Position numbers and translations under genes: made by a program
Notes under the pieces: model-generated
Database searches by the model: none
Told to the model about the DNA's origin: nothing
The model's input: the letters and a program-made list of their open reading frames with translations, nothing else
In this document: positions 40,357-57,412 of the stretch, one piece after another
How the letters are laid out: every line of letters begins with the position of its first letter
How positions within the stretch are numbered: position 1 is the stretch's first letter
From: Methanosuratincolales archaeon
GTDB taxonomy: Archaea > Thermoproteota > Methanomethylicia > Methanomethylicales > Methanomethylicaceae
Direction of reading: 5' to 3'
Assembly: GCA_014361445.1 (NCBI GenBank)
Contig: JACIVQ010000001.1
Location: forward strand, 10,174 to 74,173
DNA: 64,000 nucleotides

Positions 40357-40752
40357 GTGGGCATAATCTATGAGAACCTTAGAAAGGTAGGTTTTGGAGG
40401 GCATAGGTGGTGCGAGATTTACGAGTTTATTGACACGGGCTGCGCCGCTGGCTGCACTTTTATGGTAGAGATAACTTTGAAGTGGAAAGAGCCCATCACG
40501 GACAAGGAGAGGGCGGAAGAGATTAGATCTCTCAGAGAGGGAATAAGCGAGCTGGAGGGAAGGCTCGTCGATCTTAAGTCGATAGTTAAGCCCGACTTCA
40601 AAGCCCTTCAGAGAGCCGTATCCTCAACGAAGACCGGAACCCGCGAGCACGAAGAGGCCCTTCGAAAGCTTAAGGGGGCGCACAGGCGATGGGCGGAGCT
40701 CAAACGGATGATCCAAGAAAACCAGCAAATAAAAAACAGGTCGAGGGGATGA
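40357..40752 (+). CDS. hypothetical protein (possibly the N-terminal part of a frameshifted gene continuing in 40689-41222)
   Basis: 131 aa ORF. It overlaps the next ORF by 64 bp across an A6 run. Confidence 0.3.
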   Translation: MGIIYENLRKVGFGGHRWCEIYEFIDTGCAAGCTFMVEITLKWKEPITDKERAEEIRSLREGISELEGRLVDLKSIVKPDFKALQRAVSSTKTGTREHEEALRKLKGAHRRWAELKRMIQENQQIKNRSRG

Positions 40753-41222: not shown

Positions 41223-41320
41223 GCTACTCCATGACTCAGGCTTATAGCCGTGGGTTTTCCGCTAAAAATGGGAGAGAACGCAGCCACAACCGTAATAGGC
41301 TGATCAGAAAGGTTGGCTAT

Positions 41321-41578
41321 ATGAAATATACAAAGCAAGCGAAAACCAGAGCAGCTGAAAGGGGTATAACTGAGGACATGATTTTGGAGGCGATATTGCA
41401 ACCGTCCCAGACATATTATGACTTGAGCACTGGAGCAACAATAGCCTTCAAGAAGCTTAATGGAAAGCATCTTTTAGTAGCATACTCTAGAGAGGATAAG
41501 GAAATCAGGATTGTGACAACTTTTATAACATCAAATGCCGAAGAAATAATTGACAGAAAACCGAAGAGCAAAACATGA
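41321..41578 (+). CDS. DUF4258-family putative toxin
   Basis: MKYTKQAKTRAAERGITEDMILEAILQPSQ...GKHLLVAYSREDKEIRIVTTF matches the DUF4258 pattern (HA.ER..ERGI.....E.L......NG....V.Y.......I.VIT.Y). The ORF-track start at 41219 is probably too far upstream. Confidence 0.55.
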   Translation: MKYTKQAKTRAAERGITEDMILEAILQPSQTYYDLSTGATIAFKKLNGKHLLVAYSREDKEIRIVTTFITSNAEEIIDRKPKSKT

Positions 41579-41589
41579 GTGAGGATTAA

Positions 41590-41811
41590 GTGAAAGTGGA
41601 ATATGACAGAGAATCAGACATACTATACATAAAGTTCAAAGAGACGGAAATAGCAGACACCAAAATGTTAAGCGAAGACGCCTACATAGACCTGGACAAA
41701 GATGGAAACCTCGTTGGCATAGAAATATGGAAAGCCTCCCAAAACGCCATACTCCCAATATCTAAGGACATAGCCGAAAAACTAAAACTGATTTTGGAAA
41801 GCCCAGCCTAA
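41590..41811 (+). CDS. DUF2283-family protein (partner of DUF4258; putative antitoxin)
   Basis: MKVEYDRESDILYIKF...DLDKDGNLVGIEIW is the DUF2283 signature. 73 aa. Confidence 0.6.
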   Translation: MKVEYDRESDILYIKFKETEIADTKMLSEDAYIDLDKDGNLVGIEIWKASQNAILPISKDIAEKLKLILESPA

Positions 41812-41985
41812 AGCAAAATAAAAAGCTTTCCTAGCTCTGGTTAAATATTTTCGAAATTTTAACTTAATACCGGTGTATTTATCCCCATCTTAGCTCATAT
41901 TTCATGTAAGTCAATGCTCAGCAAGTAATGAAGAGCCTTCTCTTAAGAGTGGACTGATCTATCTCCAGCCCAGGGGCGGCGCACA

Positions 41986-42768
41986 TCAACCATAATTTTT
42001 TAAGTTTCTACCGCTCGGCACTCCCAGGTTTTTTCTAAAACCCTCTGGTTCACATATCCCTGGTGTTCGAAATAAATTGTCTAATCTCTTGGCTTCTTCG
42101 ATAAATATTCTTCTCGCATCGTCCGAGAACTTGTTTCTCCTCTGGATCTCCTCAATAGCCTGGATGTTCCCCTCTATCAGCCTCAAAACCGCTAATGTCC
42201 TCTTAAAACTGTATGTAGTGAATGGGCTCTCCTTTTCCTCGAAACCGAGCCTTTTCAGGGCACCTTTCAAGGATAAATATGCGAAGTGGTGAAGTACTTG
42301 AAAGGTGGCCATGGCCCTGTCATGCTCCTCTGCGCTACATTCAACCACACTCATCCCACATGTCAAAAGCAGTTCTCTAAACTTATCCATCCAGCACCTA
42401 ACACGTACAGGAACTATTACAACGTTCTTAATGCCCACCCTATGCGATGCAAAGAGGGGGTGGATGCTGACATACTCCAACCGTTCGGGCAGGAGACGTG
42501 TGACCTCCTCCACAATACCACACTTAACAGAGGAGATGTCCACAAAGAGGGCCCCATCTCTCATATGTTGAGATGCCTCCCCTGCGAGTTCTGGGAGCGA
42601 TGTGGGCGGAACCGCTGCTATCAGGATATCGCTCTGTAGCATACATATATCAATGTCAGCAACCCTTACCCCTACGATTTTTGCAACCCTAGCGGCCCGC
42701 CTAAATGACCTGCCACAGAGGGTCACTTCTGTAGACTTCTTCAATAGGCGGGCCATGCACCTGCCCAT
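41986..42768 (-). CDS. tyrA: prephenate dehydrogenase
   Basis: TyrA catalytic core (VAAVPP...HPLFAS...). The Rossmann motif KVGIVGTGRMG lies in frame upstream of the first ATG (see findings), so the true start probably lies between 42769 and 42843. Confidence 0.75.
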   Translation of the reverse strand: MGRCMARLLKKSTEVTLCGRSFRRAARVAKIVGVRVADIDICMLQSDILIAAVPPTSLPELAGEASQHMRDGALFVDISSVKCGIVEEVTRLLPERLEYVSIHPLFASHRVGIKNVVIVPVRVRCWMDKFRELLLTCGMSVVECSAEEHDRAMATFQVLHHFAYLSLKGALKRLGFEEKESPFTTYSFKRTLAVLRLIEGNIQAIEEIQRRNKFSDDARRIFIEEAKRLDNLFRTPGICEPEGFRKNLGVPSGRNLKNYG

Positions 42769-42782
42769 CCTCCCTGTCCCGA

Positions 42783-43853
42783 CTATGCCAACCTTGAGTA
42801 GCTCCCTAGAACCTTCAATGATTTTGATTTCCTCCTTGCATTTTCTATAACCCTAAGGCGACTTTCTCCACCGATACCACCCTCAAACTCCATGTAAAAG
42901 AAGTACTCCCACGGTCTCCCCATAATCGGTCTCGAAAGGATCATGGTGATATTTATCCCCGCCTCGGCGAAATCTGAAAGAACCCGAGAGAGGGCACCTG
43001 GTACATTATCAAGAAAGAATATTACTGCAGTCTTCTCCCCTTCAGCCTTTGATCTCTCCCGGCTCAGGATCGCGAATCTTGTATAGTTTTTGGGCGAGTC
43101 CTCAATATTCATGGCCATAATCCTTAACCCATTCAACTCCGCGGCCGTCTTACTCCCAATGGCAGCCCCTTTTGTATCCCTTGATACAAGCTCTGCTGCC
43201 CTTGCCGTAGATTCGGTAACAACGACCTCTGCATTGCTTAGATACCTTGATATATAACCCTCGCACTGTGCTAAGGCTTGTGGGTGTGAATAGAGGCGCT
43301 CCACATCACATAAGGAGGAGATCCTAGGGTTCACCATCAAGTTCTGGTTTATCCTGAGCAGTACCTCGCCCACTATGTATAATGGATACTCCATTAGGCA
43401 GTCCAGTGTTTCATTCACAGAACCCTCAATGGAGTTCTCGAGTGGAACAACGCCCAAATCCGCCTCCTCATTGTCGACGCTGCGGAAGATTTCCATGATC
43501 CTTCTGCATGGGGCGTACCTATTAGAAGATCCGAGAATTGTTGCAGCCTCATGGGAAAAACTCCCCTCAGGTCCCAAGTAGGCCACAGAGAGCGACCTCT
43601 GGGCATTTCTACACATGGAGATTATCTCCCTGAAGACCCTCTCCACACCCTTTGCAGGTGCGAGGGCTGCGGCCGCATGGGCGCTTTCTACAACCTCCCT
43701 CTCGCGCCCTGGGTCGAAGACTGGCATATCCGCTTCAGATTTTATTATGGCGATTTCCTTGCAGAGCTTTATCCTTTCGTCGATGAGCCTGACGATCTCT
43801 CTATCGATCTCTTCGATCTTTTTTCTAACTTCCCTTAGACCCATCCTCCTCAC
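42783..43853 (-). CDS. pheA: bifunctional chorismate mutase / prephenate dehydratase
   Basis: N-terminal AroQ CM helix (LREVRKKIEEIDREIVRLIDERIKLCKEIAIIK), a PDT domain (VAYLGPEGSFSHEAA...), a TRF motif and a C-terminal ACT domain. Confidence 0.9.
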   Translation of the reverse strand: MRRMGLREVRKKIEEIDREIVRLIDERIKLCKEIAIIKSEADMPVFDPGREREVVESAHAAAALAPAKGVERVFREIISMCRNAQRSLSVAYLGPEGSFSHEAATILGSSNRYAPCRRIMEIFRSVDNEEADLGVVPLENSIEGSVNETLDCLMEYPLYIVGEVLLRINQNLMVNPRISSLCDVERLYSHPQALAQCEGYISRYLSNAEVVVTESTARAAELVSRDTKGAAIGSKTAAELNGLRIMAMNIEDSPKNYTRFAILSRERSKAEGEKTAVIFFLDNVPGALSRVLSDFAEAGINITMILSRPIMGRPWEYFFYMEFEGGIGGESRLRVIENARRKSKSLKVLGSYSRLA

Positions 43854-44940
43854 CCATCACCTTTGGGATCATTTTTGCCATAATCATAAGATCCAAAAGG
43901 CAGAAAGCCGTAACGCACTCTACAACAGGGACGGCCCTGATCGCTACACATGGATCATGCCTCCCTACGACCTCGATCTCTGTCTCTTCCATAGTCCTCA
44001 GGTCGACGCTCCTCTGCCTCTTTTTTATTGAGGGCGTGGGCTTTATCCCTACCCTGAAGATCAAAGGCATGCCGTTTGTGATCCCCCCAAGAACCCCTCC
44101 TGAATGGTTCGTCTTTGTAACTACCCTCCCATTTTGAAGATAGAGTTCATCATTAGACTGGGATCCCCTCATGCTACATAAACCAAATCCTGATCCAAAC
44201 TCAACGGCTTTAACCCCAGGTATGCTAAATAGAGCATGGGCAAGTACACCCTCTACAGGGTCGAAGATTGGCTCTCCGAGACCGACCGGTAGACCTGAAA
44301 CTCTACATTCAATCACCCCTCCAGTCGAATCCCCCTCCTCTATGAGTTTCCTTATCTCGGATACCATAAGCTCTGAGGCCGTCCTGTCAGCACAATAGAC
44401 AGGACTGCCTGCAACATTCTCCAAAATCTCTTCATCAGATAGACCTTCCCTTGCCTTGATCCCGTTTATTTGTATCATATGTGCCAAGATCCTAACACCC
44501 ATTTTAGCTAGGACTTTTTTGGCAATACTCCCAGCCATAACAAACCCTGCTGTCATCCTCCCTGAAAAGAACCCCCCGCCACGGTTGTCATTGTGTCCCC
44601 CATACTTCACAAAGGCTGTATAATCTGCATGACCAGGTCTCGGGATATAACGGTTCCTCTCATACCACGTAGAATCGAGATCCTTGTTGTGGATCAACAT
44701 TAGAATCGGCCCACCATTCGTCTTCCCATAGGAGACCCCGCTGAGGATATGAACGACATCATCCTCCCCCCTGCCGCTCACTAGACCTCTACCAGGTCTC
44801 CTCCTCTCGAGCTCGCACTGGATGTCCCTCTCTTCTAGTCGGAGGCCGGCTGGGCACCCATCCACGACCGCACCTATTACCTTCCCATGGGACTCCCCAA
44901 AGATAGTCACCCTAAACTCTTTACCAAAACTGAAGCCCAT
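43825..44940 (-). CDS. aroC: chorismate synthase
   Basis: FGESHG...GCPAG N-terminus, RPGHAD and SGRxTAG motifs. 371 aa. Confidence 0.95.
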   Translation of the reverse strand: MGFSFGKEFRVTIFGESHGKVIGAVVDGCPAGLRLEERDIQCELERRRPGRGLVSGRGEDDVVHILSGVSYGKTNGGPILMLIHNKDLDSTWYERNRYIPRPGHADYTAFVKYGGHNDNRGGGFFSGRMTAGFVMAGSIAKKVLAKMGVRILAHMIQINGIKAREGLSDEEILENVAGSPVYCADRTASELMVSEIRKLIEEGDSTGGVIECRVSGLPVGLGEPIFDPVEGVLAHALFSIPGVKAVEFGSGFGLCSMRGSQSNDELYLQNGRVVTKTNHSGGVLGGITNGMPLIFRVGIKPTPSIKKRQRSVDLRTMEETEIEVVGRHDPCVAIRAVPVVECVTAFCLLDLMIMAKMIPKVMGEEDGSKGS

Positions 44941-46208
44941 TAGAAGACCTCCACCGTTGCGCCAAGGGTCCTTAGATCATTAAAGAAAGAGGGGTAGCTC
45001 TTTGAGACGCACTCAGCATTTTGGATTATAGTCTCCCCTTGAGCTACGAGCGAGGCCACGGCCGAGGCCATGGCTATCCTATGGTCGTTACTCGGGTCTA
45101 TCACCGTCGCTCTTAGGGGGGTGCCACCCTGAATTACCATAAAGTCTTCATAAGCCTTGACCTCAACACCAAAAGCCCTCAGCATATTAGTAGTTGTCAA
45201 TACCCTGTCACTCTCCTTAAACCTAAGCCTCCTAATCCCTTTTATAATTGTGGTACCGCTTGCTTGGGATCCTAAGACCGCAGTTATTGGTACTAAATCC
45301 GGAACATCGCTCATATCCAAAACTAAACCATAGAGTTTAGATCTCTTAGCCCTCCAAGTCCTACCATGCATATAAACCTCGCCCCCCATCTGGCTGAAGA
45401 TCTCTATGACCTTCCTGTCTCCCTGTGTAGAGTTTGGCATCAATCCTTCGACGCCAACATTCCCAGCGAGGAGGCCGGCAGCGAGTAGGATAGCCCCTAA
45501 GGAGTAGTCGCCCTCCACCCTGAAATTACATGGGGTCAATCTTTGACCGCCTTTTATGTGGAAGACTCTATCTTCTCTAACGATAGTGGCACCGAAAGCC
45601 CTGAGCACCTCCATAGTCATATCAACATAATATTTCGAGGCTATTGGCGTTGTAATATTTAGGACCGTGTCTTTTTTTGCCTTTGTAGATGCTATCAGGA
45701 GTGCTGATATAAACTGTGAACTTATGTCCCCACGGAGATTCACCTCTCCACCCTCTATACCTCCCCCCATAACCACTACTGGAGGACAGCCGTCCCCTCT
45801 GGTGGAGTAGCAGGAGACACCCAACGAGTTGAGACACCTTAATAGTTCCCCCATAGGCCGCCTCCTTAAGGACCGGTCTCCCGTCAATACCGTTATACCA
45901 GGGGCGAGCGCTGATACCGCCGTGAAGATCCTAATCGCCGTAGCAGATCCCTTACAGTCTATGATGTCCTCAGGTGTCCTGAGTGACCCACCCTCTATAA
46001 CCCATTTGTCATAGCCCTCTTCTACACCAGCCCCGAGCATCTTGGCGGCATTAAGCGCCGCCCTTGCATCCTCACAATGAGAGGGATCGATTATCTCTGT
46101 CCTACCATCTGCAATGAGCGCGCATGCCACCGCCCTCTGCGTATAACTCTTCGAGGGCGGCGCTCTTACGCTACCGCTGACCTCATTCCCCTTAATCTTT
46201 ACATTCAT
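44940..46208 (-). CDS. aroA: 3-phosphoshikimate 1-carboxyvinyltransferase (EPSP synthase)
   Basis: PPSKSYTQRA, LGAG... and the full two-domain EPSPS length (422 aa). Confidence 0.95.
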   Translation of the reverse strand: MNVKIKGNEVSGSVRAPPSKSYTQRAVACALIADGRTEIIDPSHCEDARAALNAAKMLGAGVEEGYDKWVIEGGSLRTPEDIIDCKGSATAIRIFTAVSALAPGITVLTGDRSLRRRPMGELLRCLNSLGVSCYSTRGDGCPPVVVMGGGIEGGEVNLRGDISSQFISALLIASTKAKKDTVLNITTPIASKYYVDMTMEVLRAFGATIVREDRVFHIKGGQRLTPCNFRVEGDYSLGAILLAAGLLAGNVGVEGLMPNSTQGDRKVIEIFSQMGGEVYMHGRTWRAKRSKLYGLVLDMSDVPDLVPITAVLGSQASGTTIIKGIRRLRFKESDRVLTTTNMLRAFGVEVKAYEDFMVIQGGTPLRATVIDPSNDHRIAMASAVASLVAQGETIIQNAECVSKSYPSFFNDLRTLGATVEVF

Positions 46209-47065
46209 AAATCCTCACCCTTGCGGGCCTTCCTGCAACTAGTCTTGGCTTTAATAATCCTTGCCCCGAAACGCTTCCAGCCCTCGACTATGGGATCCTC
46301 ATCCCCCTCCCTACATACAGCACAGACGGCTGGACCTTTACCGCAGAGACCTGCTGATATCGCCCCCCTCTCCATGGCCGTTATGATGGGCGATGGGTCA
46401 TATCCAAAGGTATGTGACATAATTAGGCCATTTAGGATCATTGCTTGCCAGACCCTCCCACCCATCGCTTCTTGAAAAGCCACCTCGGCAAGCCTCCTCA
46501 CAGACCTTACAGTTTCCTGTCCCACACTCCCTGAGTAACGCCTCTCCTCGGGAACGAGAAAGAGGACAGTCAAGGGCTCGACCTCAACACTCTTTAAGAT
46601 CCTCATCCGGCAATTATCAGTGATCTGAAGGCCGCCAAAGTAACTGGCTGATGCGTCATCGAAGGCGCCCGTGAGTGTCACCCTTGCTCTTATTGAGGCC
46701 TCGACCCCTAGCTTTACTATCTCGAGATCCTCCAGGTCCTCTCCCAAGGCGTCTAGTGTAGCCAACACTATGGCGTTTGACGCCGCGCTGGAGCTCTTCA
46801 TGCCCCTTGCTATTGGGATGTTGCTCCACGTCTTTATGGAGCCCCCCTTCCTAAGTCCAAACCGCTCCATTACTACCTTAAATGACTCCTTTGCCAACTC
46901 CTTACTCTCCCCACTATCACCATTTATCTCGACCGAGATTCCTACATGATCGTTGAGCTCGACCTCAGCGACCGTCCAAAGATCCACACCTAATGATGCG
47001 CCAAGTCCCGATGGCATAGCATTTACAACTGTTGTGGCTCCATAGGCCACCCCTACCCCTTTCAT
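46205..47065 (-). CDS. aroK: shikimate kinase, archaeal GHMP-kinase type
   Basis: GHMP motif PIARGMKSSSAASNA. Positioned within the aro operon. 286 aa. Confidence 0.8.
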   Translation of the reverse strand: MKGVGVAYGATTVVNAMPSGLGASLGVDLWTVAEVELNDHVGISVEINGDSGESKELAKESFKVVMERFGLRKGGSIKTWSNIPIARGMKSSSAASNAIVLATLDALGEDLEDLEIVKLGVEASIRARVTLTGAFDDASASYFGGLQITDNCRMRILKSVEVEPLTVLFLVPEERRYSGSVGQETVRSVRRLAEVAFQEAMGGRVWQAMILNGLIMSHTFGYDPSPIITAMERGAISAGLCGKGPAVCAVCREGDEDPIVEGWKRFGARIIKAKTSCRKARKGEDL

Positions 47066-47901
47066 CGGGTATCACCCCTTACGGCCCTGCGCATCGTCTC
47101 TAAGGGCGCCGTCCGCCCAGTCCATAAAGTAAACGCTATAGCCCCTTGATGGACTAGCGGCTCTAGACCATCTATCACCTTGCAGCCCTTTGCCTTGGCC
47201 AACCGCAAAAGTTTCGTCTCGATGGGATCATAAACTAGATCCATCACTATGACGCCCACATCCAACAGGTGGTCTGGTACAGGGCTCTCATCTATTCTTG
47301 GTCTCATCCCCAAAGGCGTGGCATTTATAATTAGATCTACTTTCCTTATTCCACTGAGATCGACCAGAGAGAGACCTTCTGCATAAGCCCCCCCTCTGAG
47401 GAGGTCTGCAAGAGATTTAGACTTGGAGGGATCCCTCCCAGCTATGAGGATCTTAGATGGCTTATTAGTAGATGCCAACTCAAATGCAACTCCTCTTGCC
47501 GCTCCTCCATAGCCCACTATGATCACGCTCTTCCCAGAGATCTCTACGCCGCAATACTCAAGGGCCCCAATAACCCCTTTCCCATCAGTATTATAGCCAA
47601 CCAATCTTCCTCCGTTGTTCAGAATGGTATTCACAGAGCCCACAAGTTCCGCCGTCCCTTCCAATTCATCGAGGTATTTTATGATCTCCGTCTTGTGGGG
47701 CATAGTCACATTACACCCAAGGAAGCCTATAGCCCTCAGACCATCAACAGTAGTTTTGAGGTCCTCCCTCTTCACCCTGAAGGCAAGGTACGCGCAATCC
47801 TCCCCCAACTCTGAGAAGGCAGCAGTAAACATAGCCGGGCTCCTAGAGTGTTCTACTGGGTCGCCTATCAAACAGCAGAGGCGCGTCCTACCAGTGGTCA
47901 A
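47062..47901 (-). CDS. aroE: shikimate 5-dehydrogenase
   Basis: GDPVEHSRSP, NVTMPHK and the GGAARG NADP motif. Confidence 0.9.
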   Translation of the reverse strand: MTTGRTRLCCLIGDPVEHSRSPAMFTAAFSELGEDCAYLAFRVKREDLKTTVDGLRAIGFLGCNVTMPHKTEIIKYLDELEGTAELVGSVNTILNNGGRLVGYNTDGKGVIGALEYCGVEISGKSVIIVGYGGAARGVAFELASTNKPSKILIAGRDPSKSKSLADLLRGGAYAEGLSLVDLSGIRKVDLIINATPLGMRPRIDESPVPDHLLDVGVIVMDLVYDPIETKLLRLAKAKGCKVIDGLEPLVHQGAIAFTLWTGRTAPLETMRRAVRGDTR

Positions 47902-48556
47902 GGGCCATCACCTCCCGTAGGGACTTAAGTGTCTCAACATCTACCTGCCCAGGTGCCGTCTCCTTCCCTCTCTTAAGAGAGGCATATGTCCACTCAGCCC
48001 CAAATATGGGGCAGAGCACACGGGATATGATCCCTAACTCCCCGTAACAGAATATAATGCGCCGGTACCCCTTCAATGAGCTGCATGCCTGGAGGGCGAC
48101 CAGATTTTCATCATGGGTATGTGCGGGCATCACCGCCTTATAGATGACCTTGTTCCCATATTCTTTGATCATTGAAGAGATCTCCTCTTGTGTAAGGGGG
48201 CGGTTGACATGCCACGAGATGATGATCTCAGTTCTGCCGAGCATGCTCTCCATACACTCTCTAATGAGAGATCCCCCCATCTCGGCACCGAGATCCACAT
48301 AATCTGCATACTCGGATGCCATTAGGAGTAATTCCGCTCTCTCTCTGAGCCCACCATCAAACCTTCCAAATGTAGAGTTTGGCATTATAGTGGCTACTTT
48401 GGGGATATCTATTACATCTAAAGCCTTGAATATGCGCCTGAGCTTGTCTCCATCTAATCTCTTAATGTAATCTAATCGAACCTCTATGAGATCGGCCCCC
48501 TTAATCCTTGCCTCCTCTGCGCTACGGAGCAGATCCTTCTCGCATACCTCGGCCAA
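47888..48556 (-). CDS. aroD: 3-dehydroquinate dehydratase, type I
   Basis: IEVRLD... and a (beta/alpha)8 type-I DHQase pattern with the conserved lysine region. 222 aa. Confidence 0.8.
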   Translation of the reverse strand: MAEVCEKDLLRSAEEARIKGADLIEVRLDYIKRLDGDKLRRIFKALDVIDIPKVATIMPNSTFGRFDGGLRERAELLLMASEYADYVDLGAEMGGSLIRECMESMLGRTEIIISWHVNRPLTQEEISSMIKEYGNKVIYKAVMPAHTHDENLVALQACSSLKGYRRIIFCYGELGIISRVLCPIFGAEWTYASLKRGKETAPGQVDVETLKSLREVMALDHW

Positions 48557-48575
48557 GGAGACACAGATCTTGTAC

Positions 48576-49664
48576 CTAATTGCACATAACCTCCTCTAAA
48601 GATGAAGTTATGATCTCTTCGGGAGGGTCTGTTATAACCGTACCTTCTCCGATTTTTGTTGGAACAGCGAACCTTAACTTACCGGACCTGACCTTCTTGT
48701 CATGGTATATTGAGGTGAGTACGCCCTCAACTGATCCCCTCCGCGCCCTCTTTGAAAGTCCGTAGGCCGATATTAGCGACTCCATCCTATGGAGATCCCT
48801 ATGGCTAAGTAATCCTAGTCTATTGGAGATCCTGCCCTCCACCACCATACCCACCCCTACTGCTTCTCCATGGCTATAGTAAGAATAACTTGTAGCCGAC
48901 TCTAGCGCATGTCCCACCGTGTGACCAAAATTTAACAACATCCTCGCATTTTTATCGAACTCGTCTATGGCTACTACATCTGCTTTAATCTTAATAGCAA
49001 TTGAAACGATCCTCTCTATAAGATCGCTTTGGAGCCCTTTAATATCATCCTTATATTGTTCGAGGATGGAGAAGAGAGAGCTGTTAAGGATGGCACCATA
49101 CTTTATAAGTTCAGCGATCCCGTTCCTGATCTCTCTTGGTGGGAGCGTTTTTAAAAGACCTACGTCCGTAACGACGAGCTTTGGTTGGTAGAATGTTCCG
49201 ATGAGGTTCTTCGCGAGGGGGTGGTTTATGGCAACCTTCCCACCGATGCTACTGTCTACTTGTGCGAGGAGGGTCGTCGGGATGTGGGCTAGCTTTGTTC
49301 CTCTCATGTATGTGGCAGCGACAAAACCAGCCAGATCACCTACACAGCCCCCTCCGAATGAGGCTATCACCGCTTCCCTCCCTACATTATGCTCGAGTAG
49401 GGCATTTACCACCTCTAAGTAGCTCTCGAAGGATTTTGCCCCCTCCCCATCTGGGACTTCTATAATAAAATAGTCGAGCCCTTCATTGGAGAGGGAGTCT
49501 TCTACGATTCTTCCGTAAAGTCCCCTAACGGGAGGGACTGTGAGGACCACTACTTTTTCCCCTTCGCTTACCTCTCTAAGATACCTCCCCACACTACTAA
49601 GTAGCCCATTACCTATGTGGACTGAGTAACTCCGTCTGCCTAAGTTTACGGTTATAGTCTCCAC
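48576..49664 (-). CDS. aroB: 3-dehydroquinate synthase
   Basis: GGGCVGDLAGFVAATYMRG..IPTTLLAQVDSSIGGKVAINHP. Confidence 0.9.
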   Translation of the reverse strand: METITVNLGRRSYSVHIGNGLLSSVGRYLREVSEGEKVVVLTVPPVRGLYGRIVEDSLSNEGLDYFIIEVPDGEGAKSFESYLEVVNALLEHNVGREAVIASFGGGCVGDLAGFVAATYMRGTKLAHIPTTLLAQVDSSIGGKVAINHPLAKNLIGTFYQPKLVVTDVGLLKTLPPREIRNGIAELIKYGAILNSSLFSILEQYKDDIKGLQSDLIERIVSIAIKIKADVVAIDEFDKNARMLLNFGHTVGHALESATSYSYYSHGEAVGVGMVVEGRISNRLGLLSHRDLHRMESLISAYGLSKRARRGSVEGVLTSIYHDKKVRSGKLRFAVPTKIGEGTVITDPPEEIITSSLEEVMCN

Positions 49665-50645
49665 TCAAATTCGCCTCCCCACGGCCCTTGTCAAGACCGC
49701 GAGCTCGTCCATGAGTCTATGGAAGGCTTTTAGTGTGAGGGACTGGGGACCATCGCTGAGGGCAGCCTCAGGCCTTGGATGTACCTCTATTAAGAGCCCA
49801 TCTGCCCCAGCTGCTATTGCGGCTTTGGAGGCGGCAGGTACAAGCTCGCTCCTCCCTGTCGCATGGCTTGGGTCAGCGACTACTGGTAGGTGGGTCAATA
49901 GCTTGGTCAGAGCTATACCTGACACATCCAGGACATTCCTGGTGGCATCCTCAAAAGTCCTTATCCCCCGCTCACAGAGTATTACATTCCAATTCCCCTC
50001 TAAGAGTATGTACTCTGCTGCTAAGAGCCACTCCTCGATTTTGGCCGACGGGCCTCTCTTCAGTAGTACAGGCTTCATAGATCTTCCGACCGCCCTGAGG
50101 AGTTCGAAGTTCTGCATGTTCCTCGCCCCTATCTGAAGCGCATCTGCATACTTGGAGACCAGATTGACCTGTTCCGGGGAGAGTACCTCCGTGACTACAG
50201 GGAGACCTACTTCACCAGAGACCTCCCTCAGAATCTTCAGTCCCTCCTCCCCAAGCCCCTGAAATGAGTAAGGGGACGTCCTAGGCTTGAACGCCCCCCC
50301 TCTGAGCGCCCTCGCACCAGCATTCTTTACATCCCTTGCTACTTCCCTCATCATCTCTAACCCTTCAACAGCACAAGGTCCTGCGCAGACTACAACTTCT
50401 TCCCCTCCGAACTCTACATCCTTGATCTTTACACAAGTATTATCTTTGGAATACTCCCTACTCACGAGCTTGAATTCGCTCTGGATCTCCTTTGAAGAGA
50501 TTATCTCGATTTGAGAGAGCAAACCCTCAGGAACCCTCCCCTTTACTATATATACAACCTTCCCATCACGTTCGACCTTCCAAATCCTCCCAGCCAACCC
50601 CCTCTCAAGAATCTGAGATGGCTCCCTAAGAGTTAAGATCATCAT
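49665..50645 (-). CDS. aroF: 3-deoxy-7-phosphoheptulonate (DAHP) synthase, type I-beta with N-terminal regulatory domain
   Basis: [21 protein letters not shown] and LPVVTEV. 326 aa. Confidence 0.9.
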
Positions 50646-51553
50646 CTCCTCCTCCGAATAACCCCCTTGATAACTGATCTTATCTTTTCGGCTGTAAGAC
50701 CAAACTTCTCTAATAGTTCGCGGTGTGTTCCGGATTCGCCGAAAGTGTCGCCGATACCAATCCTTGCCACTGGGACTGGGTACTCTAGAGAGAGAAGTTC
50801 CGCCACAGCGCTCCCTAGACCACCAATTACGCTATGCTCCTCAACACATACTACTGCCCCACAGGACTTTGCAGCTGAGATGACTGCCTCCTTGTCCAGC
50901 GGCTTAATTGTCGAGACGTGTACAACCCTCACACTTGTATCTGTGCATCTTGCCGCTTCGAGAGCCTCTGCGGTTATTGAGCCAGTAGAGAAGAGGGCAA
51001 CATCGCTACCGTCCATTAAAGTGGTTGCCTTACCAATCCTAAATACCCCATCACGATCGAAGATCCTCACATCTTCGTCCCTCCCTATCCTTAGGTAGAC
51101 CGGCCCCTTCATTTCTATAATAGCCTCCACCGCCTCCTTGACCTCTTGAGGGTCACCTGGCGCGACCACGGTCATGTTTGGTAAGACGCGCATCAACGCA
51201 AGGTCTTCCAAGGCTTGGTGGGACGCTCCATCATCAGCGGCTGTCAGCCCAGCGTGTGTGCCCACGAGTTTCACATTAAGGTTCGCTCTGGAGATCGTAT
51301 TCCTTATCTGCTCCCATGCCCTCATTAGAAAAGAGGAGAAGAGGGTCACGAGAGGGACCCTCCCTGTGAGTGCCAGTCCAGCCGCGACCCCTACTATATC
51401 TTGCTCGCTGATTCCAAGATTGAATAATCGGTTTGGGTACCTGTCTTTAAATTTGTATACGTATGTAGGGTTGCCAACGTCCCCAGTCAGGACGATGAGT
51501 TCTTCGTATAATTCTCCGAGCCTTACCAAGGACTCTCCGAACGCTCTGCGCAC
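50642..51553 (-). CDS. tkt: transketolase, C-terminal (pyrimidine-binding) subunit
   Basis: Split-transketolase pyrimidine-binding subunit pattern, with an internal Gly-rich segment. 303 aa. Confidence 0.9.
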
Positions 51554-52420
51554 CTAGAGACCTCCCCCGTACGCCTCTAACTCCTTTAATGCCGCCAAGT
51601 ACTGCTCATCATTCAAGCGGATCTTGTGCCCCCCATTTGTATCCTCAATAAATGGGACGCCATGCCCCTTCTTAGTGTAGGCTATTATAGCAACAGGTCC
51701 TTCGGAGTGTTCTGCGTAGTCCAAAACCTCCACAATCTTCTGTACATCATGCCCATTTACTGTGTAAACCTCCCAACCAAAACTTTCAATCTTTGCCTTC
51801 AATGGTACCTTTTTCTTAACCTCCTCCGTTCTTCCGTCTAATTGCCACCCATTTCGGTCAATAATTAGAACCAAGTTTGAGAGTTTCAGATGCGCAGCCG
51901 TCATCATAGCCTCCCAGACCTGCCCTTCGTCACACTCGCCGTCGCCCATCAAAACATAGACCCTCGATCTACTGCCATTCATCCTGATACCCAACGCCAT
52001 GCCCACCCCAATGGACAAGCCCTGTCCTAACGAGCCAGACGGAGCCTCCACGCCAGGAACTCTAAGATCCGGATGCCCCTGGAGGCGGGACCCAAGTTTT
52101 TTGAAGGTCCTTAACTCCTCCCTTTGGATGTAGCCCATTTCCGCCAGGACCGCATAAAGTGCCAGTGCCGCATGCCCCTTGCTCAGGACGAACCGATCTC
52201 TATCTTTCCACAATGGCTCATAGGGGGTGTGCCGCATTTTCAAGAAGTAGAGTGTTGCGATTATTTCAAGGCATGAAAGCGATGAACCGAGGTGCGCATT
52301 TTCATTATGGGCCGTCTCGAGTACCAGTCGACGAATAGATCTTATCTTCTCTTTGAGTTTTTGAACCTCTATTATATGCCGTAGTTCGCTAGTTTCCACT
52401 GTGCTACCCATTACAGTCAC
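51554..52420 (-). CDS. tkt: transketolase, N-terminal (TPP-binding) subunit
   Basis: GHPDLRVPGVEAPSGSLGQGLSIGVGMAL, a GDGE TPP motif and SNLVLIIDRN. Confidence 0.9.
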   Translation of the reverse strand: MTVMGSTVETSELRHIIEVQKLKEKIRSIRRLVLETAHNENAHLGSSLSCLEIIATLYFLKMRHTPYEPLWKDRDRFVLSKGHAALALYAVLAEMGYIQREELRTFKKLGSRLQGHPDLRVPGVEAPSGSLGQGLSIGVGMALGIRMNGSRSRVYVLMGDGECDEGQVWEAMMTAAHLKLSNLVLIIDRNGWQLDGRTEEVKKKVPLKAKIESFGWEVYTVNGHDVQKIVEVLDYAEHSEGPVAIIAYTKKGHGVPFIEDTNGGHKIRLNDEQYLAALKELEAYGGGL

Positions 52421-52707
52421 CCTTTGCTGTTAAAATTCGCGGAGGTCGATCTGAAGTCAAAGACTCAAAGAGTGTCCAAAGGCAAAGAATGGTTACGGTT
52501 ATAGATATTGGAATTGGCTCACTTTGCCCACCTTTTTTATACTCCTAGAATCTTGATAGTATTTAAGTATTCTCGACAAAATTTTTTGACTAGCAAAAGC
52601 GGCAACACCAAAGGCATACAACCAGCAGGGTCCAAAATCAGAATCCTAGACGAGCCTCCAATTGCATATATCATTAGCACAAATGATTCCCGATATTATG
52701 ACTGCCT

Positions 52708-53297
52708 CTATTCACCGCCCAGGAAGGTCGAGGAGCTCGCCAAATACAAACCCTTTATCGGCGTTTTGAAGTATGGCCTTCTTACCCCAACCGACTGATC
52801 GAAGGAGTAGAGGGCGCCCTCTGGCATCGAAGTATATCTCTCGAATGTTTTGGGTGTTGCCGCGTCCTTGATGTAAAGCGACGGGCAGCCCGTCACAGAC
52901 AGGTAGAGCATGTAGTCGTAGTCCCCCGCTCGCATACGCCTTCTGGAAGACCCCCTTCCCACTCACGGCGTCCGGAGGGAACATGAACCAGCCCGTACTG
53001 GACGAGCTTCCTTATTGTCAGTTTGAAGTCAACCTTGGTCAGCTCCTTGTAGGGCTGACTGTTGGCCCATGCCACGACTCGCTCTATCTCCGCCCTGGTG
53101 GTAGTGCTCGGGTCGAAGGGGCATGCATTCATAATGGTGCAGACGTGGGTCACGTACTTGATGGTCCCCACGTCCGATATCCCCATGGCCCTCAGGTGTT
53201 CTATGAACGATAGCAGGAACTGCGCGTTCGGGAGGGAGGCTAGGCGCCTCTTGACATACTCCATCCTCTTCCTGCAGTCTTGCATGTCCTCACTCAC
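52708..53297 (-). pseudogene. tyrosine-recombinase (integrase) remnant, frameshifted and truncated
   Basis: The 52893-53297 frame encodes a SAM-like N-terminal domain (AQFLLSFIEHLRAMGISDVGTIKYVTHVCTIMNACPFDP...TRAEIERVVAWAN). The overlapping 52708-52962 frame continues with an integrase box-I-like segment RAGDYDYMLYLSVTGCPS, lacking the catalytic Arg, and then terminates. Confidence 0.45.
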
Positions 53298-53376
53298 CCC
53301 TGCTCTTCTGAAGCGGGGCGGATTTTAAAAGGCTGGATGGATGTACAAGAGAATCTGTATTGTACTCGCAACCTAC

Positions 53377-53399
53377 ATTTGTTAGAACGAAAGATCTAA
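53377..53399. repeat. 23-bp sequence atttgttagaacgaaagatctaa (copy 2 of the perfect direct repeat)
   Basis: Identical to 35554-35576. Lies 80 bp upstream of the integrase-remnant start. Confidence 0.8.
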
Positions 53400-53462: not shown

Positions 53463-54128
53463 TTAGACGCAAATTCCTGCACGGTTCATCAAGAGCCTTG
53501 ACAAATACCACAAAGGTATCGATATTGCGGCGATAATAGACAGGGAGATCAAGAATGATAGAGAGATCTCCAACAGTGAATTAGACTGGAAGATAAAGAG
53601 GGGCGGTAAAATAGAGAGGATGAGTGCGGAGGCTAAAATTAAGAGCAAGAACCGACGCAAATCGGGGCAAAGGGGAGCAAATAAAAGTCCGAAGAATAAA
53701 GAGAAGAGCCAAAGTGGGACAGATATTAAAAAGCTGTTGATGAAGAAATACATTAAAGTAATAGCCATGGCCAGAGTCAGAGACAACGGCAAAGAGGAAG
53801 GGAGCCGGCCGAATTTTGGGTACCTTTTGCCGACCTTAATGCCCGTTTTGGGGATCTCTTGATTAAGCCAGGCTTCAGCCTTTGGGGTAATCTCGTAGAG
53901 GTACCTCTTGTCATCCCTTCTTCTCGAAATGAGGCCGAGTCTCAAAAGGAGGGATAGGTGAGCTTCTACTGTGCTTCTCGATCTGTTGACACTCTCTGCG
54001 ATTTCATCTCCAGTCATTGGCCTCTGGGAGAGTGCCTCCAATATGGAATATCTCGTCCTTTCGCTTAGAGCGTCAAGGATCTCCCTCAGTTCCTCCCCTT
54101 CCATGCCATATTTTTGGGAGAACCTCAT
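53463..54128 (-). CDS. ArsR-like wHTH regulator fused to a C-terminal multi-TM domain
   Basis: N-terminal LREILDALSERTRYSILEALSQRPMTGDEIAESVNRSRSTVEAHL (ArsR-type), then about four hydrophobic helices. Confidence 0.5.
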   Translation of the reverse strand: MRFSQKYGMEGEELREILDALSERTRYSILEALSQRPMTGDEIAESVNRSRSTVEAHLSLLLRLGLISRRRDDKRYLYEITPKAEAWLNQEIPKTGIKVGKRYPKFGRLPSSLPLSLTLAMAITLMYFFINSFLISVPLWLFSLFFGLLFAPLCPDLRRFLLLILASALILSILPPLFIFQSNSLLEISLSFLISLSIIAAISIPLWYLSRLLMNRAGICV

Positions 54129-54228
54129 TTAAGAGAATTATTGTATTTCGATTTTTCTAGAAAGATCGAATCGGTCTCCGCCTTAAGAGGGCTTATAATC
54201 AGCCGAGGACGTACTCTCTCAGAGGACT

Positions 54229-54798
54229 ATGCGTCTGAAAAAGATCCTCCTGATATTGGCAATAGTGATGTTCTTCCCTTGGGCGCTGCTGCCACTTGGA
54301 TTTTATCACATCTGGAGGAGAGGGGTCTTTCAATCATTGATGAAAAGTTTTGCAGAACCATTTAGAAGGCCTCTTATCAGGACTCAAGGATTAATCGAAG
54401 AGACTCTAACTTTTAAGTATTATAAGCCCAGCAATGGCCAGTGTTACGCGTTAATTCCAAGGACGTTTGGGGCCCAGTATGTTTACGGGATTGAGATAAG
54501 AGACCTCCCGGAGAGGTTGACAAGTAATATTGGAGATGTAATCAGGGCGATCATGGATAATATTGGGGCGAGAGGAGAGACCACGATCTCATTGGTTACT
54601 AAAGACAAGATCGAGAAGGTGCGAATTCATTCGGTTTCAAAGGTTCTTCCTGGAATTGAGGTTGATGTCGGGAAGGAGGCGAGAGAGACCACATTGAGGA
54701 TCTTTGATGCCTTGAGATCAGAGTCTCCAACACTTAAGGTCAACTTATGCAAGGGTGACGAGGTCACGGAAGGCTTGCCCTTGGAGGTATTTAGATGA
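54229..54798 (+). CDS. hypothetical membrane-anchored protein
   Basis: N-terminal TM (ILLILAIVMFFPWALLPLGF) with a soluble domain. 189 aa. Confidence 0.35.
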   Translation: MRLKKILLILAIVMFFPWALLPLGFYHIWRRGVFQSLMKSFAEPFRRPLIRTQGLIEETLTFKYYKPSNGQCYALIPRTFGAQYVYGIEIRDLPERLTSNIGDVIRAIMDNIGARGETTISLVTKDKIEKVRIHSVSKVLPGIEVDVGKEARETTLRIFDALRSESPTLKVNLCKGDEVTEGLPLEVFR

Positions 54799-56126
54799 GA
54801 CGGCAGGAGCTCAAGACTTTGGGACTGCTCAATAAATGTGAGAATAAGTTAGCAGTGCGTGCTGGTTTAGGGGAGATCAGGGAGGCAGAATTTTCGAGGG
54901 TAGTTGTCATTGGGGATGAGAGGGCAAGGGTAAGGATGATGGCGGAGCTCGTGATGAATGGTTTTGAAGGAGGCCATGCCCCTCTCGTCATGGACCTGAA
55001 GGGAAGGTACGCAGGACTTATTGACTATATTCCCTCAATGAAGATATACAAAGTCGGAAAGCACCCAACTTTCAACCCACTAAAGGAGGCATTTCCAGGG
55101 TACTCCAAAGAATTCGCCCTGATCTTTAAGGAGATATATGAGCTAAGCCGTGATGAGTGCATATATCTTGAAAAGGTCCTTGAGAATGCCTACAGGGATG
55201 GAGATTGTTGCCCAACATTAGAAGGTATATTTGAGAGGCTCCTTCGGATGGAGGCAGAGGCCCAACCGAAGGAGGGTTACAAGATCGAGTGTCTCAAAAA
55301 TGTCCTCTCAGAGCTGGAGGTAGGACCGCTAGCCCCCATATTTAGGGGAAATGAGAGGGAGCTCTTCGCGCCGATGATACTCGATCTTGGCAATCTCACG
55401 TTAAAGGAGAGGGTTATGATGATGGTTGCCAGCCTTGCCAGGATCAGGGAGTGCAGAGCCACATTTGTGGTGATTGACGGGCTTGACTGGTCAATCATCT
55501 CCGGTTCAATATGGTTAAAAAGTATTGTAAGGGATATGATCGAAGACCTGAGCTACAGAGGAATATCCGTATATATCGGGTCAGATGATCTAATTCACGC
55601 CCCAATCCGGAGTACGGCATATGTATTCTGCGGTCCAATTTGGTATGATGAGGTTAGGTGGATCAGAGGGCTGGCGGACGGGCTGGATTTAGAGCACTTC
55701 AGATACCTTGAGGAGGGCACAGGGCTTGTAGTGACGTGGAAGAGGGCTCCATTTTACTTGAGGTTCAGAAGCCCAGAATTCAGGGTTGTTGGGGACGATG
55801 AGATCGAGGCACACATGAAGACCTTGGGTGAAGAGGTTTCGTATTTTGATTCTGCTCAAGGTAAAAGTGAAGGGATGCTAGAGAGGCTATTTAGGGACAG
55901 GGCGTCTCTCTTCTACGCGAAAGAGTTCTTGAGGTTAGTTGGCGAAGGTAGGGTGCCTGTGGAGGCGGTAAGTTCTCAAAGAAACGCAACTTTGAGAAAT
56001 GTGGTCAGAATCTTGAAGCGGTACTTCTTGGTTGTTGAGCACATAGATGGAACAGGAACGAAATGGTACAGGCTCACCAATGTTGGGGAGAAAGCACTAC
56101 GCGAGGTGGAGGGAGAGGAGGCGTGA
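54795..56126 (+). CDS. hypothetical protein, P-loop-NTPase-like core with degenerate Walker A and C-terminal wHTH
   Basis: VVVIGDERARV occupies the position where a Walker A would be expected. hhhhD motifs (FVVIDGLD, VYIGSDD). C-terminal ...LRNVVRILKRYFLVVEHIDGTGTKWYRLT is wHTH-like. 443 aa. Confidence 0.35.
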   Translation: MRRQELKTLGLLNKCENKLAVRAGLGEIREAEFSRVVVIGDERARVRMMAELVMNGFEGGHAPLVMDLKGRYAGLIDYIPSMKIYKVGKHPTFNPLKEAFPGYSKEFALIFKEIYELSRDECIYLEKVLENAYRDGDCCPTLEGIFERLLRMEAEAQPKEGYKIECLKNVLSELEVGPLAPIFRGNERELFAPMILDLGNLTLKERVMMMVASLARIRECRATFVVIDGLDWSIISGSIWLKSIVRDMIEDLSYRGISVYIGSDDLIHAPIRSTAYVFCGPIWYDEVRWIRGLADGLDLEHFRYLEEGTGLVVTWKRAPFYLRFRSPEFRVVGDDEIEAHMKTLGEEVSYFDSAQGKSEGMLERLFRDRASLFYAKEFLRLVGEGRVPVEAVSSQRNATLRNVVRILKRYFLVVEHIDGTGTKWYRLTNVGEKALREVEGEEA

Positions 56127-56428
56127 GGGTGAAACATGTGACGGACAGGGAGATATTCTGGAGCCTAGGACGGGGCGATGGGGACGAGATAATAGGGGTG
56201 GAGGTTAGCCTGGAGGGAGAGGGCAGAGTCTCTAGAAAGATAGTTTCCAGGGGGAAGTACGGCAAGGAGAGGACGGTCTTCTTGGAGAGGTACTCTGTGG
56301 ATGAGTACCTAGGGATCATAAGATCTGAGTCTGCACTCCTCTCCTCTTCCAAAGGTGAAGATCGCGATGCTATGACATTGATAATAGAGGCGATAGAGCT
56401 CCTAAGGAGGGCATCCGAGAAGATATGA
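56123..56428 (+). CDS. hypothetical small protein
   Basis: The ORF ends 1 bp before radA. The likely GTG start overlaps the preceding stop. Confidence 0.3.
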   Translation: MRVKHVTDREIFWSLGRGDGDEIIGVEVSLEGEGRVSRKIVSRGKYGKERTVFLERYSVDEYLGIIRSESALLSSSKGEDRDAMTLIIEAIELLRRASEKI

Positions 56429-56446
56429 ATGGTTTGGTGTAGTAAT

Positions 56447-57412
56447 ATGGATAATGTTGGTGAAGAGCTAGACCTAGAGGATCTTTCAGGGATAGGATCC
56501 TCAACGGCAGAGAAACTTAGGAGGGCAGGGATTAGCTCTGTGAAGGAGCTTGCTGCAATATCAGTCAGAGAACTCCTGGAAAGGAGTGAATTGGGCGAGG
56601 GGAAAGCAGAGGAAGTAACAAAGAGCGCCAGGGAATTCTGTCTTCCAAAGGTGTTAAGCGCAAAGGAATTTTTGGAGAGGAGGAGAAAGATGCCGAGATT
56701 GACCACAGGTTCGAAAAACATCGACAAGTTGCTAGGGGGAGGACTCGAACCCGGAATAACCGAGCTTATAGGCGCATTTGGGACTGGGAAAACACAGATC
56801 TGCCTCCAGCTCTGCGTAACCGTACAGCTCACAGAGAATAGGGGAGGCCTAAACGGCACCGCCTTTTATATCGACACAGAGGACACGCTCAAACCTGAAA
56901 GGATTCTACAGATAGCAAAGCGCTTTGGGATTGAGGATGAAGAGATACTGGAGGGCGTTTACTGCTTCAGAGCCATAAATTCGGACCATCAGTTTGAGGG
57001 GCTCAGAGAGGCGGCCCGGTACATTAAGGAAAAATCTGTAAAGCTGTTGATCGTAGACTCGCTAACCTCCCACTTCAGGAGCGAGTATCCGGGAAGGGAA
57101 AATCTGGTCTTAAGGCAACAAAGGCTGAACAACTTTATGCACGGGCTTCAGAAGCTGGTCTCTCTTTATGATCTCATAGTTGTTGCTACAAACCAAGTCG
57201 TGGATGTCCCAGAGGTCATACCTGGCGCCAGACCTGCAAGACCTGCCGGAGGGAACATAGTCGCGCATGGGAGTACATTCAGGTTGTGGCTCGAAAGGTG
57301 CAAGGGTATGACTAGGTTGACCTGCATAGACTCGCCGAAGCACGCGAGAGATACTACCTACGTTACGCTGACTGAGGGAGGGGTCGAGGATGTCGAGGAG
57401 GAGAGGGTTTAG
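56447..57412 (+). CDS. radA: DNA repair and recombination protein RadA
   Basis: N-terminal HhH (DLEDLSGIGSSTAEKLRRAGISSVKELA) and Walker A GAFGTGKTQ, with full RecA/Rad51 core similarity. Confidence 0.9.
   Translation: MDNVGEELDLEDLSGIGSSTAEKLRRAGISSVKELAAISVRELLERSELGEGKAEEVTKSAREFCLPKVLSAKEFLERRRKMPRLTTGSKNIDKLLGGGLEPGITELIGAFGTGKTQICLQLCVTVQLTENRGGLNGTAFYIDTEDTLKPERILQIAKRFGIEDEEILEGVYCFRAINSDHQFEGLREAARYIKEKSVKLLIVDSLTSHFRSEYPGRENLVLRQQRLNNFMHGLQKLVSLYDLIVVATNQVVDVPEVIPGARPARPAGGNIVAHGSTFRLWLERCKGMTRLTCIDSPKHARDTTYVTLTEGGVEDVEEERV

Follow-up and report, generated by a model that had tools for sequence, protein, structure and literature searches.

An ATPase-inactivated HerA-type protein is part of a conserved radA operon in Methanomethylicia and may assist RadA

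Introduction

The recombinases RadA and Rad51 need mediators, and the archaeal set of these is poorly known, with RadB, aRadC, and the SsoRal-type paralogues as examples. HerA, the archaeal bipolar DNA helicase and translocase, works with NurA in a machine for end resection. Two membrane-associated members of the HerA clade, CedB and CedD, take part in DNA import for recombinational repair in Sulfolobales (PMC11868833, PMC11823120, PMC9905601), so that in the Ced system a HerA-clade machine at the membrane is coupled to this repair (PMC11868833, PMC11823120). Here, we analyzed a locus of a Methanosuratincolales archaeon in which radA is preceded by three genes coding for uncharacterized proteins of 189, 443, and 101 amino acids (aa), called p189, p443, and p101, and by a divergent gene coding for a regulator that combines a winged helix-turn-helix (wHTH) domain with transmembrane (TM) helices (wHTH-TM). 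We refer to these four genes as the cassette. Positions are those of the window, the whole 64,000-nucleotide stretch analyzed (contig JACIVQ010000001.1, positions 10,174 to 74,173 of the forward strand), unless another locus is named.

The original prediction, made from the letters of the window and its open reading frames (ORFs), had recognized no family for the three proteins by eye and had proposed a DNA-transaction, defence, or conjugation-related module, on the grounds of its linkage to the recombinase gene and to the boundary of an integrase remnant. We report that p443 is an inactivated form of the known HerA kind within a conserved radA operon. No description of the p443 family or of a radA-linked inactive HerA was found in the literature that we searched.

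Results

p443 is a diverged HerA-clade protein with a degenerate NTPase site

Family searches with the proteins encoded upstream of radA were nearly silent, in agreement with the original prediction. Indeed, p189, p443, and p101 had no match at E<=1 in Pfam, NCBIfam, PADLOC, or PHROGs, bar two chance-level PHROG matches (E 0.31 and 0.47), and p443 did not reach the gathering score of the curated Pfam models DUF87 and HerA_C. Copies of the three proteins in the databases are all named 'hypothetical', except for one p189 orthologue that carries the evidently automatic label 'pex2/pex10/pex12'. One of these copies, in an NCBI metagenome-assembled genome labelled Candidatus Methanomethylicales (Verstraetearchaeota), matches p443 at 100% identity. 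Searching the PDB with the p443 sequence (gene at 54795-56126, plus strand), or with a profile of its narrow clade, gave no match either.

Structure prediction and intermediate profiles placed p443 in a superfamily. The AlphaFold2 (AF2) model, computed with 10 orthologues (predicted local distance difference test score, pLDDT, 78; predicted template modeling score, pTM, 0.72), was matched by Foldseek in the PDB to the VirB4 ATPase domain (4ag6, E 1.4e-7), to HerA (9x1m, E 2.1e-7, and 4d2i, E 5e-6), and to TrwB (E ~2e-5); in BFVD, it matched generic viral HerA-like and conjugation-like phage proteins. A profile of the narrow p443 clade, run against 1.84 billion representative proteins, found 36 proteins at E<=1e-3, the weaker members of which carry Pfam DUF87, the HerA central domain, together with intact GxxGxGKT and EEAHH motifs. 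Only distant profile relatives (P0037, P0042, P0043, P0049, and P0052) match DUF87, and p443 does not. With hhalign, the inactive clade aligned to the active DUF87 relatives over 317 columns (99.5% probability, E 7.8e-23), and a profile including the intermediates matched solved HerA structures in the PDB with an E of 3e-15 and VirB4 with an E of 2e-6. Profile-profile comparison and structure prediction of 54795-56126 thus both gave a HerA/VirB4/TrwB-type fold. From the structure matches, the intermediate profiles, and the hhalign alignment taken together, p443 is, as far as models and profiles can tell, a diverged HerA-clade member of the P-loop protein superfamily named FtsK-HerA, keeping the RecA-like core, helical insertion, and C-terminal wHTH of its active DUF87 relatives.

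In the model, the helical insertion in the P-loop domain spans residues ~103-183, and the C-terminus folds as a helix-helix-helix-strand-strand wHTH (residues ~360-440), the domain that had been read by eye in this protein. No part of p443 is better conserved than this wHTH, in which many residues between positions 362 and 435 are invariant. About 34 residues precede the first core strand, of which residues 1-18 are disordered in the model, and there is no HAS barrel.

The motifs of the nucleoside triphosphatase (NTPase) site are lost. In the hhalign alignment, VVIGDERARV of p443 lines up with FGRTGSGKTN of the active relatives, so that the GxxGxGKT of Walker A is replaced by G40-D-E-R-A-R45-V, one residue shorter and with Lys changed to Arg and Thr to Val. 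At Walker B, VVID228-G-L-D231-W falls on IIEEAHH and the catalytic Glu is replaced by Gly; more distant p443 orthologues have Pro or Gln at this position. The loss of both motifs is present in all 10 orthologues aligned, and the wider inactive clade also has degenerate P-loops. Because the phosphate-binding loop and the catalytic glutamate are gone, p443 is, judging by its sequence, a pseudo-ATPase that cannot act as a conventional ATP-driven DNA pump. The original prediction had called it a pseudo-ATPase from the same VVIGDERARV stretch, correctly.

Some of the active relatives have features of their own. At the C-terminus of P0042, P0052, P0053, and P0054, an additional domain shows a PD-(D/E)xK-like pattern (such as ...VDV.A....R.A.E.ET...), read from the sequences only, which suggests that HerA-nuclease fusions may occur among the active proteins with DUF87 and a wHTH. 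The gene upstream of P0042, the nearest active relative among those inspected, codes for a 200-aa soluble coiled-coil protein, unlike p189, and P0042 has no radA neighbor.

The cassette genes and radA form one operon

The gene for p189 (54229-54798), that for p443, and that for p101 (56123-56428) follow one another on the plus strand and end at radA (56429-57412), which codes for an archaeal Rad51/RecA-family recombinase with an N-terminal helix-hairpin-helix domain (NCBIfam RadA PRK04301, 356 bits for a cutoff of 259; Pfam Rad51, E 1.4e-71, and HHH_5). The ORFs first described at this place, a divergent wHTH gene and three co-directional genes before radA, are all present where they had been put. 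The stop of p189 and the start of p443 overlap by 4 nucleotides (nt; ATGA), the stop of p443 and the start of p101 share a GTGA, and the TGA of p101 directly abuts the ATG of radA at 56429. Such junctions are the usual signature of a translationally coupled operon, and radA would therefore be expressed as the last gene of a p189-p443-p101-radA operon. Its downstream neighbor is a phosphoenolpyruvate (PEP) synthase gene.

We then compared the locus with that of the closest relative (L012), from which it differs by a synonymous divergence (dS) of ~0.4. The ratios of nonsynonymous to synonymous divergence (dN/dS) were 0.18 for wHTH-TM, 0.22 for p189, 0.20 for p443, 0.13 for p101, and 0.05 for radA. 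The four cassette genes are working genes under purifying selection that evolve faster than radA. A 261-aa ORF runs antisense to p101 and radA on the minus strand (56074-56859); as both genes opposite it are conserved and under purifying selection, it probably does not represent a gene.

The linkage to radA is conserved across lineages

To follow the gene order in relatives, we surveyed one genome per GTDB species by tblastn and judged the order where the contig permitted. All 16 Methanomethylicia species genomes (Methanomethylicus, Methanosuratincola, and other Methanomethylicaceae) kept the order wHTH-TM, p189, p443, p101, radA, with identities to the window proteins of 30-86% for p443 and 67-96% for RadA. 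Metagenome contigs with p443 orthologues have the identical five-gene order. The complete genomes of Methanosuratincola LWZ-6 and LCB70, both brought into culture, contain the operon too.

At ~20-25% identity, a core made of a p189-like gene, a pseudo-HerA gene, a gene for a 114-131-aa protein, and radA was found in Nezhaarchaeales (L028), in 'Thermoprotei' metagenome-assembled genomes (MAGs; L008 and L030), and in other Methanomethylicota (L031). In these four loci and in L010, also from other Methanomethylicota, both flanks differ, and the cassette is joined to radA by overlaps between starts and stops that measure 4-26 nt. In all lineages examined in which the two are linked, radA overlaps or abuts the preceding cassette gene. 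The linkage of the cassette to the recombinase gene, on which the original prediction had leaned, is therefore real and deeply conserved, and the order upstream of radA is kept despite different flanks. Together, the wHTH-TM gene and p189-p443-p101-radA make up a unit of five genes that the class Methanomethylicia and a few neighboring lineages have inherited vertically.

Three of the distant loci encode further proteins after radA. In L010 (7478-8384), L028 (6665-7508), and L031 (6616-7519), radA is followed by a gene for a ~100-aa SWIM-like protein with a CxC...CxH pattern, which matches Pfam SWIM below the cutoff (E 0.067). The next gene in L010 and L031 codes for a RadB/KaiC-like P-loop paralogue whose Walker A is intact; its counterpart in L028 has a degenerate P-loop and no such Pfam match. 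By analogy, these genes resemble recombination-mediator-type genes, namely the eukaryotic sets made of Shu2/SWS1 and Rad51 paralogues. No SWIM-like or RadB-like gene is next to radA in the window, where only a weak KaiC-like match was seen, 5.9-6.1 kb away.

Two other loci depart from the common layout. In Baldrarchaeota (Asgard; L029, 323-5602), genes for a Hel308/Ski2-like helicase and for two small membrane proteins precede those for a TM-hairpin protein and a HerA-like protein with a degenerate Walker A and a PadR-like wHTH, and NifH-like genes follow. The second, L025 (4620-6471), is a second contig of the MAG that also gave L014. It carries a chimeric 196-aa ORF that joins, in one frame, part of an ABC-transporter ATPase to the final ~70 residues (wHTH) of pseudo-HerA; intact p101 and radA follow, and then a fragmented PEP synthase gene. 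L025 is either a natural deletion of the regulator, of p189, and of the greater part of p443 or an artifact of assembly or binning.

p189 is a predicted membrane-hairpin protein, and p101 a small conserved one

Orthologues of p189 are encoded directly upstream of every pseudo-ATPase gene. A hydropathy scan detected an N-terminal hydrophobic segment in p189, and the AF2 model computed with 15 sequences (pLDDT 77) shows a hairpin of two helices (residues 2-15 and 17-30) around a conserved FPW/P turn, then an amphipathic helix, and, over residues 55-189, a cytoplasmic beta-beta-alpha-beta-beta-alpha-beta (ferredoxin-like) domain. The membrane anchor first read from the sequence thus reappears in the model as a membrane hairpin. 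Foldseek matched the soluble domain in the PDB to generic ferredoxin-like folds such as MoaC, PII-like proteins, and YbjN (E ~1e-3, TM-scores 0.3-0.4). No match to the VirB4 N-terminal domain was found for the p189 model, and no VirB4 or TrwK chain was among its top 50 Foldseek PDB matches, though both are in the library. We had considered that p189 and p443 might be a split VirB3/VirB4 pair, an idea that we dropped because of this result. Pfam scans of each member of the p189 alignment and a profile search of the PDB gave chance-level matches at most.

The gene for p101 starts at the GTG at 56123, which gives a protein of 101 aa, as orthologues of 100-107 aa begin with MRV[KR]HV; a 121-aa version starting at the upstream ATG (56063) finds no support in them. 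It is the ~100-aa ORF noted from the start as ending just before radA. Orthologues of 100-131 aa occupy the same position in the loci of Methanomethylicia, Nezhaarchaeales, and 'Thermoprotei', and seven residues (W13, R38, G44, K45, E55, Y57, and E69) are invariant across 16 of them. The dN/dS of p101 is the lowest within the cassette. From its sequence, p101 looks like a beta-rich N-terminal half followed by two C-terminal helices. Member-wise Pfam scans and a PDB profile search with the p101 alignment gave chance-level matches, with no detectable relatives outside the operon.

A membrane-bound ArsR-type regulator faces a conserved palindrome

The divergent gene (53463-54128, minus strand) codes for an ArsR/SmtB-type wHTH (residues ~15-90) that matches Pfam HTH_5 (E 5e-9, 36.2 bits for a cutoff of 22) and HTH_20 (33.8 bits for a cutoff of 27); the match to NCBIfam HTH_metalloreg is marginal, just below the cutoff (52.9 bits for 55). 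A hydropathy scan placed ~4 TM segments between residues 112 and 214, and these matches and segments bear out the divergent ArsR-type, multi-TM protein of the original prediction. An orthologue combining wHTH and TM helices is placed divergently beside the cassette in the Methanomethylicia, Nezhaarchaeales, and 'Thermoprotei' loci. Like ArsR/SmtB regulators, wHTH-TM is transcribed away from the operon that it probably targets, and a palindromic site lies between the two, but it differs from these regulators by its ~4 fused TM helices. By inspection of the sequence, it also lacks Cys in residues 1-100 as well as the metal-binding Cys/His motifs (alpha3 CxC and alpha5 sites) of the wHTH, and without cysteines there, it would not be a classical metal sensor. 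The true start is probably M9 (ATG at 54104) rather than 54128, because the orthologues span 205-211 aa. A conserved TTTAAGA box, probably a minus-strand TATA element, overlaps the first codon of the longer ORF (54104-54135 region).

Between the two divergent promoters stands a perfect 22-bp palindrome, TCGATTTTTCTAGAAAGATCGA (54148-54169, no strand), flanked by TATA-like boxes, one per direction. The box on the side of the operon, TTATAAT (54193-54199, plus strand), was read from the sequence ~30 nt upstream of the p189 start and is the putative promoter of the whole operon. The palindrome has the consensus YCGRnnTWTCTARAAAnnnCGR and sits at the same position in 12 orthologous intergenic regions from Methanomethylicus and Methanosuratincola; it occurs once in the window, where 0.02 occurrences would be expected by chance (<=3 mismatches). 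The block aagagnncTTAtAAt is conserved across the orthologous intergenic regions as well. The palindrome is probably the operator of the adjacent wHTH-TM, controlling both the regulator gene and the operon that ends in radA, and TCGAnnTTTCTAGAAAnnTCGA is a candidate target site for the soluble wHTH of this regulator.

The integrase remnant belongs to a neighboring insertion

Relative to L012, with which it shares 87% nucleotide identity, the window has an insertion of 17.8 kb (35577-53399); in L012, the site is empty and the cassette is intact. Perfect 23-bp direct repeats, ATTTGTTAGAACGAAAGATCTAA, flank the insertion (35554-35576 and 53377-53399), and a decayed ORF for the N-terminal part of an integrase (52893-53297, minus strand) lies at its right end, ~170 bp past the 3' end of wHTH-TM. 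With its start at 53463, 64 bp beyond the right repeat, the cassette is not part of the inserted element. Its tie to the integrase-remnant boundary, which was one ground for the original prediction, falls away with this result.

The cargo of the insertion is a complete operon for the shikimate and aromatic amino-acid pathway, coding for DAHP synthase, DHQ synthase, DHQase, EPSP synthase, chorismate synthase, CM-PDT, prephenate dehydrogenase, and a split transketolase, along with a cytosine/purine permease, an amidohydrolase, and an Lrp/AsnC regulator. It is unusual for an integrase-delimited island to carry a core biosynthetic pathway.

Discussion

The conserved linkage to radA points to a role of the cassette in DNA transactions, a part of the original prediction that held, and the searches gave no clear assignment of its proteins to unrelated housekeeping functions. 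We favor the reading that p443 is a membrane-tethered, DNA-binding pseudo-ATPase scaffold that assists RadA and, from the sequences and structure models, give it a probability of about 0.45. In such an arrangement, p189 would tether p443 to the inner face of the membrane. p443, possibly ring-forming like its relatives, would be a nucleotide-independent scaffold binding DNA or protein through its wHTH and helical insertion, with p101 as an adaptor. The three proteins would make up an accessory complex for RadA, acting as a mediator or in its localization, which might pass membrane-proximal or incoming DNA to RadA or control the assembly of RadA filaments. The wHTH-TM protein would bind the 22-bp palindrome and set the level of the whole unit, including radA. 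For such a complex, the closest parallels in function are the Ced system of Sulfolobales and the ATPase-dead Rad51-paralogue mediators. In its fullest form, this reading would give Methanomethylicia and related Thermoproteota a RadA accessory machine, a membrane-tethered ring of the ATPase-dead HerA-type p443 with p189 and p101, that couples membrane-proximal or incoming DNA to RadA filament assembly and is encoded in an operon under a membrane-embedded ArsR-type factor; we consider this extended version rather unlikely.

Several points weigh against a role in assisting RadA, and most of them would also suit a cassette that has a membrane-related function unrelated to recombination and stands beside radA only through inherited gene order. 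What ties the cassette proteins to RadA function is gene order alone, and the tethering or partner role of p189 is a guess, as the modeled soluble domain gave matches to generic folds only. The synteny inside Methanomethylicaceae could be largely simple inheritance, since the PEP synthase gene downstream of radA is equally syntenic across Methanomethylicia. The Baldrarchaeota homologues are not beside radA, the L010 locus has pseudo-HerA and radA with no small protein between them, and L025, which retains radA without most of the cassette, suggests, unless it is an assembly artifact, that radA can do without p189 and p443. However, the linkage by overlapping frames persists down to ~20% identity in loci where both flanks have been replaced, the context without radA in Baldrarchaeota still includes a DNA-repair helicase, and the nearest active relatives of p443 are DNA-handling HerA-type ATPases. 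We therefore hold mere inheritance of the gene order to be improbable. A chiefly regulatory cassette, in which p443 would be a wHTH transcription factor or a negative regulator of RadA of the anti-recombinase type, with p101 as co-factor, and would tune the expression or activity of radA rather than assist it, has only a slim chance in our view. The wHTH is indeed the most conserved region of p443, pseudo-enzymes often turn into regulators, and the locus contains two wHTH proteins and a conserved palindrome. Yet active relatives share the C-terminal wHTH, which makes it ancestral to the family and no new regulatory gain; the palindrome is more simply ascribed to the adjacent ArsR-type wHTH-TM; and the 350-residue P-loop core and the helical insertion, both kept under purifying selection, would be superfluous in a simple repressor.

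The structural matches raise another alternative, to which we give little credence: that the cassette is a reduced relative of the Ced/Ted or type IV secretion system-like DNA-transfer machineries, contributing a structural component to a channel for DNA uptake or exchange whose motor is encoded elsewhere, with radA recombining the imported DNA. The best Foldseek match of p443 is a VirB4 ATPase domain and TrwB/VirD4 also scores, p189 and wHTH-TM are membrane proteins, and in Sulfolobales the DNA used for homologous recombination is brought in by the HerA-clade CedB and CedD together with CedA proteins in the membrane (PMC11868833, PMC11823120, PMC9905601). Against this, the profiles place p443 nearer to HerA/DUF87 than to VirB4 (E 3e-15 against 2e-6), the soluble domain of p189 is without similarity to the VirB4 N-terminal domain, and the Walker motifs are dead in all members. 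Pfam shows no pilin (VirB2/CedA1/TedC) or VirB6/CedA channel gene in the locus, where the sole polytopic protein is wHTH-TM, the TM part of which was not compared structurally, and Beltran et al. mention neither this lineage nor a radA linkage. A mobile-element cargo or an anti-phage defence island next to an integrase is very improbable and largely refuted. The nearby integrase remnant and the frequency with which HerA-like ATPases occur in systems for defence and in 'dark matter' islands of archaea (PMC4158269; PDB matches) had spoken for it. Nevertheless, the remnant sits in the 17.8-kb insertion and the closest relative has an empty site beside an intact cassette, the cassette is found at the same chromosomal place in all sampled Methanomethylicia, and its composition resembles that of the adjoining genes. 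There is neither a PADLOC match nor a PHROG match above chance for p189, p443, and p101, and the locus contains no effector gene such as a nuclease or Sir2. The defence and the mobile or conjugation-related parts of the original prediction thus did not hold: the cassette belongs to a vertically inherited core operon, without VirB2/VirB6-type partners seen in the locus and with a dead ATPase site.

Throughout an archaeal class, the translation of radA stays coupled to that of a pseudo-enzyme descended from a HerA-type pump and of two uncharacterized proteins, with a conserved operator-like site and a membrane-bound regulator. Three protein families that had no annotation are thereby placed in a context open to testing. 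Should the complex indeed assist or localize RadA, a motor protein would have been converted into a scaffold, and a central recombinase would be under membrane-linked control.

Comparison with known systems

Compared with the HerA/DUF87 clade (arCOG00280-type), p443 has the same RecA-like P-loop core, in which Walker A is followed by the hhhhD-x-G-x-Y strand, and the same C-terminal wHTH as its DUF87 relatives (hhalign 99.5%), and both the p443 cassette and HerA are associated with genes of homologous recombination. Unlike HerA, p443 has a shortened Walker A without Lys and Thr, has lost the catalytic Glu, and lacks the N-terminal HAS barrel. Moreover, its locus contains no NurA, Mre11, or Rad50, no nuclease was found in any of ~25 related loci, and p443 is partnered with a membrane-hairpin protein and a 101-aa protein and built into the radA operon. 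The anti-phage HerA systems (Sir2-HerA and DUF4297-HerA) differ in that the cassette has no PADLOC match and no adjacent effector.

VirB4 and VirD4 (TrwB), with CedB and CedD, include the best structural match to the p443 ATPase domain (4ag6, with TrwB), and they share with p443 a helical insertion in the P-loop domain and an association with the membrane through partner proteins, proposed here to occur via p189. They differ from it by the dead NTPase site of p443, by the fold of p189, which does not resemble the VirB4 N-terminal domain, and by their pilin and VirB6/CedA-like channel genes, none of which was recognized beside the cassette. The cassette also occurs in Methanomethylicia, not in the Sulfolobales or Thermoproteales of the Ced system.

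The last comparison is with the ATPase-dead Rad51-paralogue mediators, such as the yeast Shu complex (Csm2-Psy3-Shu1-Shu2/SWIM). These are structural helpers of a recombinase with a P-loop fold, as p443 may be, in an analogy that would be functional only, and related lineages (L010, L028, and L031) carry the SWIM-like protein in the radA operon. Unlike the Shu-type mediators, p443 belongs to the HerA clade and is not a Rad51/RecA paralogue, and it would be tethered to the membrane via p189. If p443 and its partners do assist RadA, they would represent a new type of mediator, drawn from the FtsK-HerA superfamily rather than from the Rad51 paralogues.

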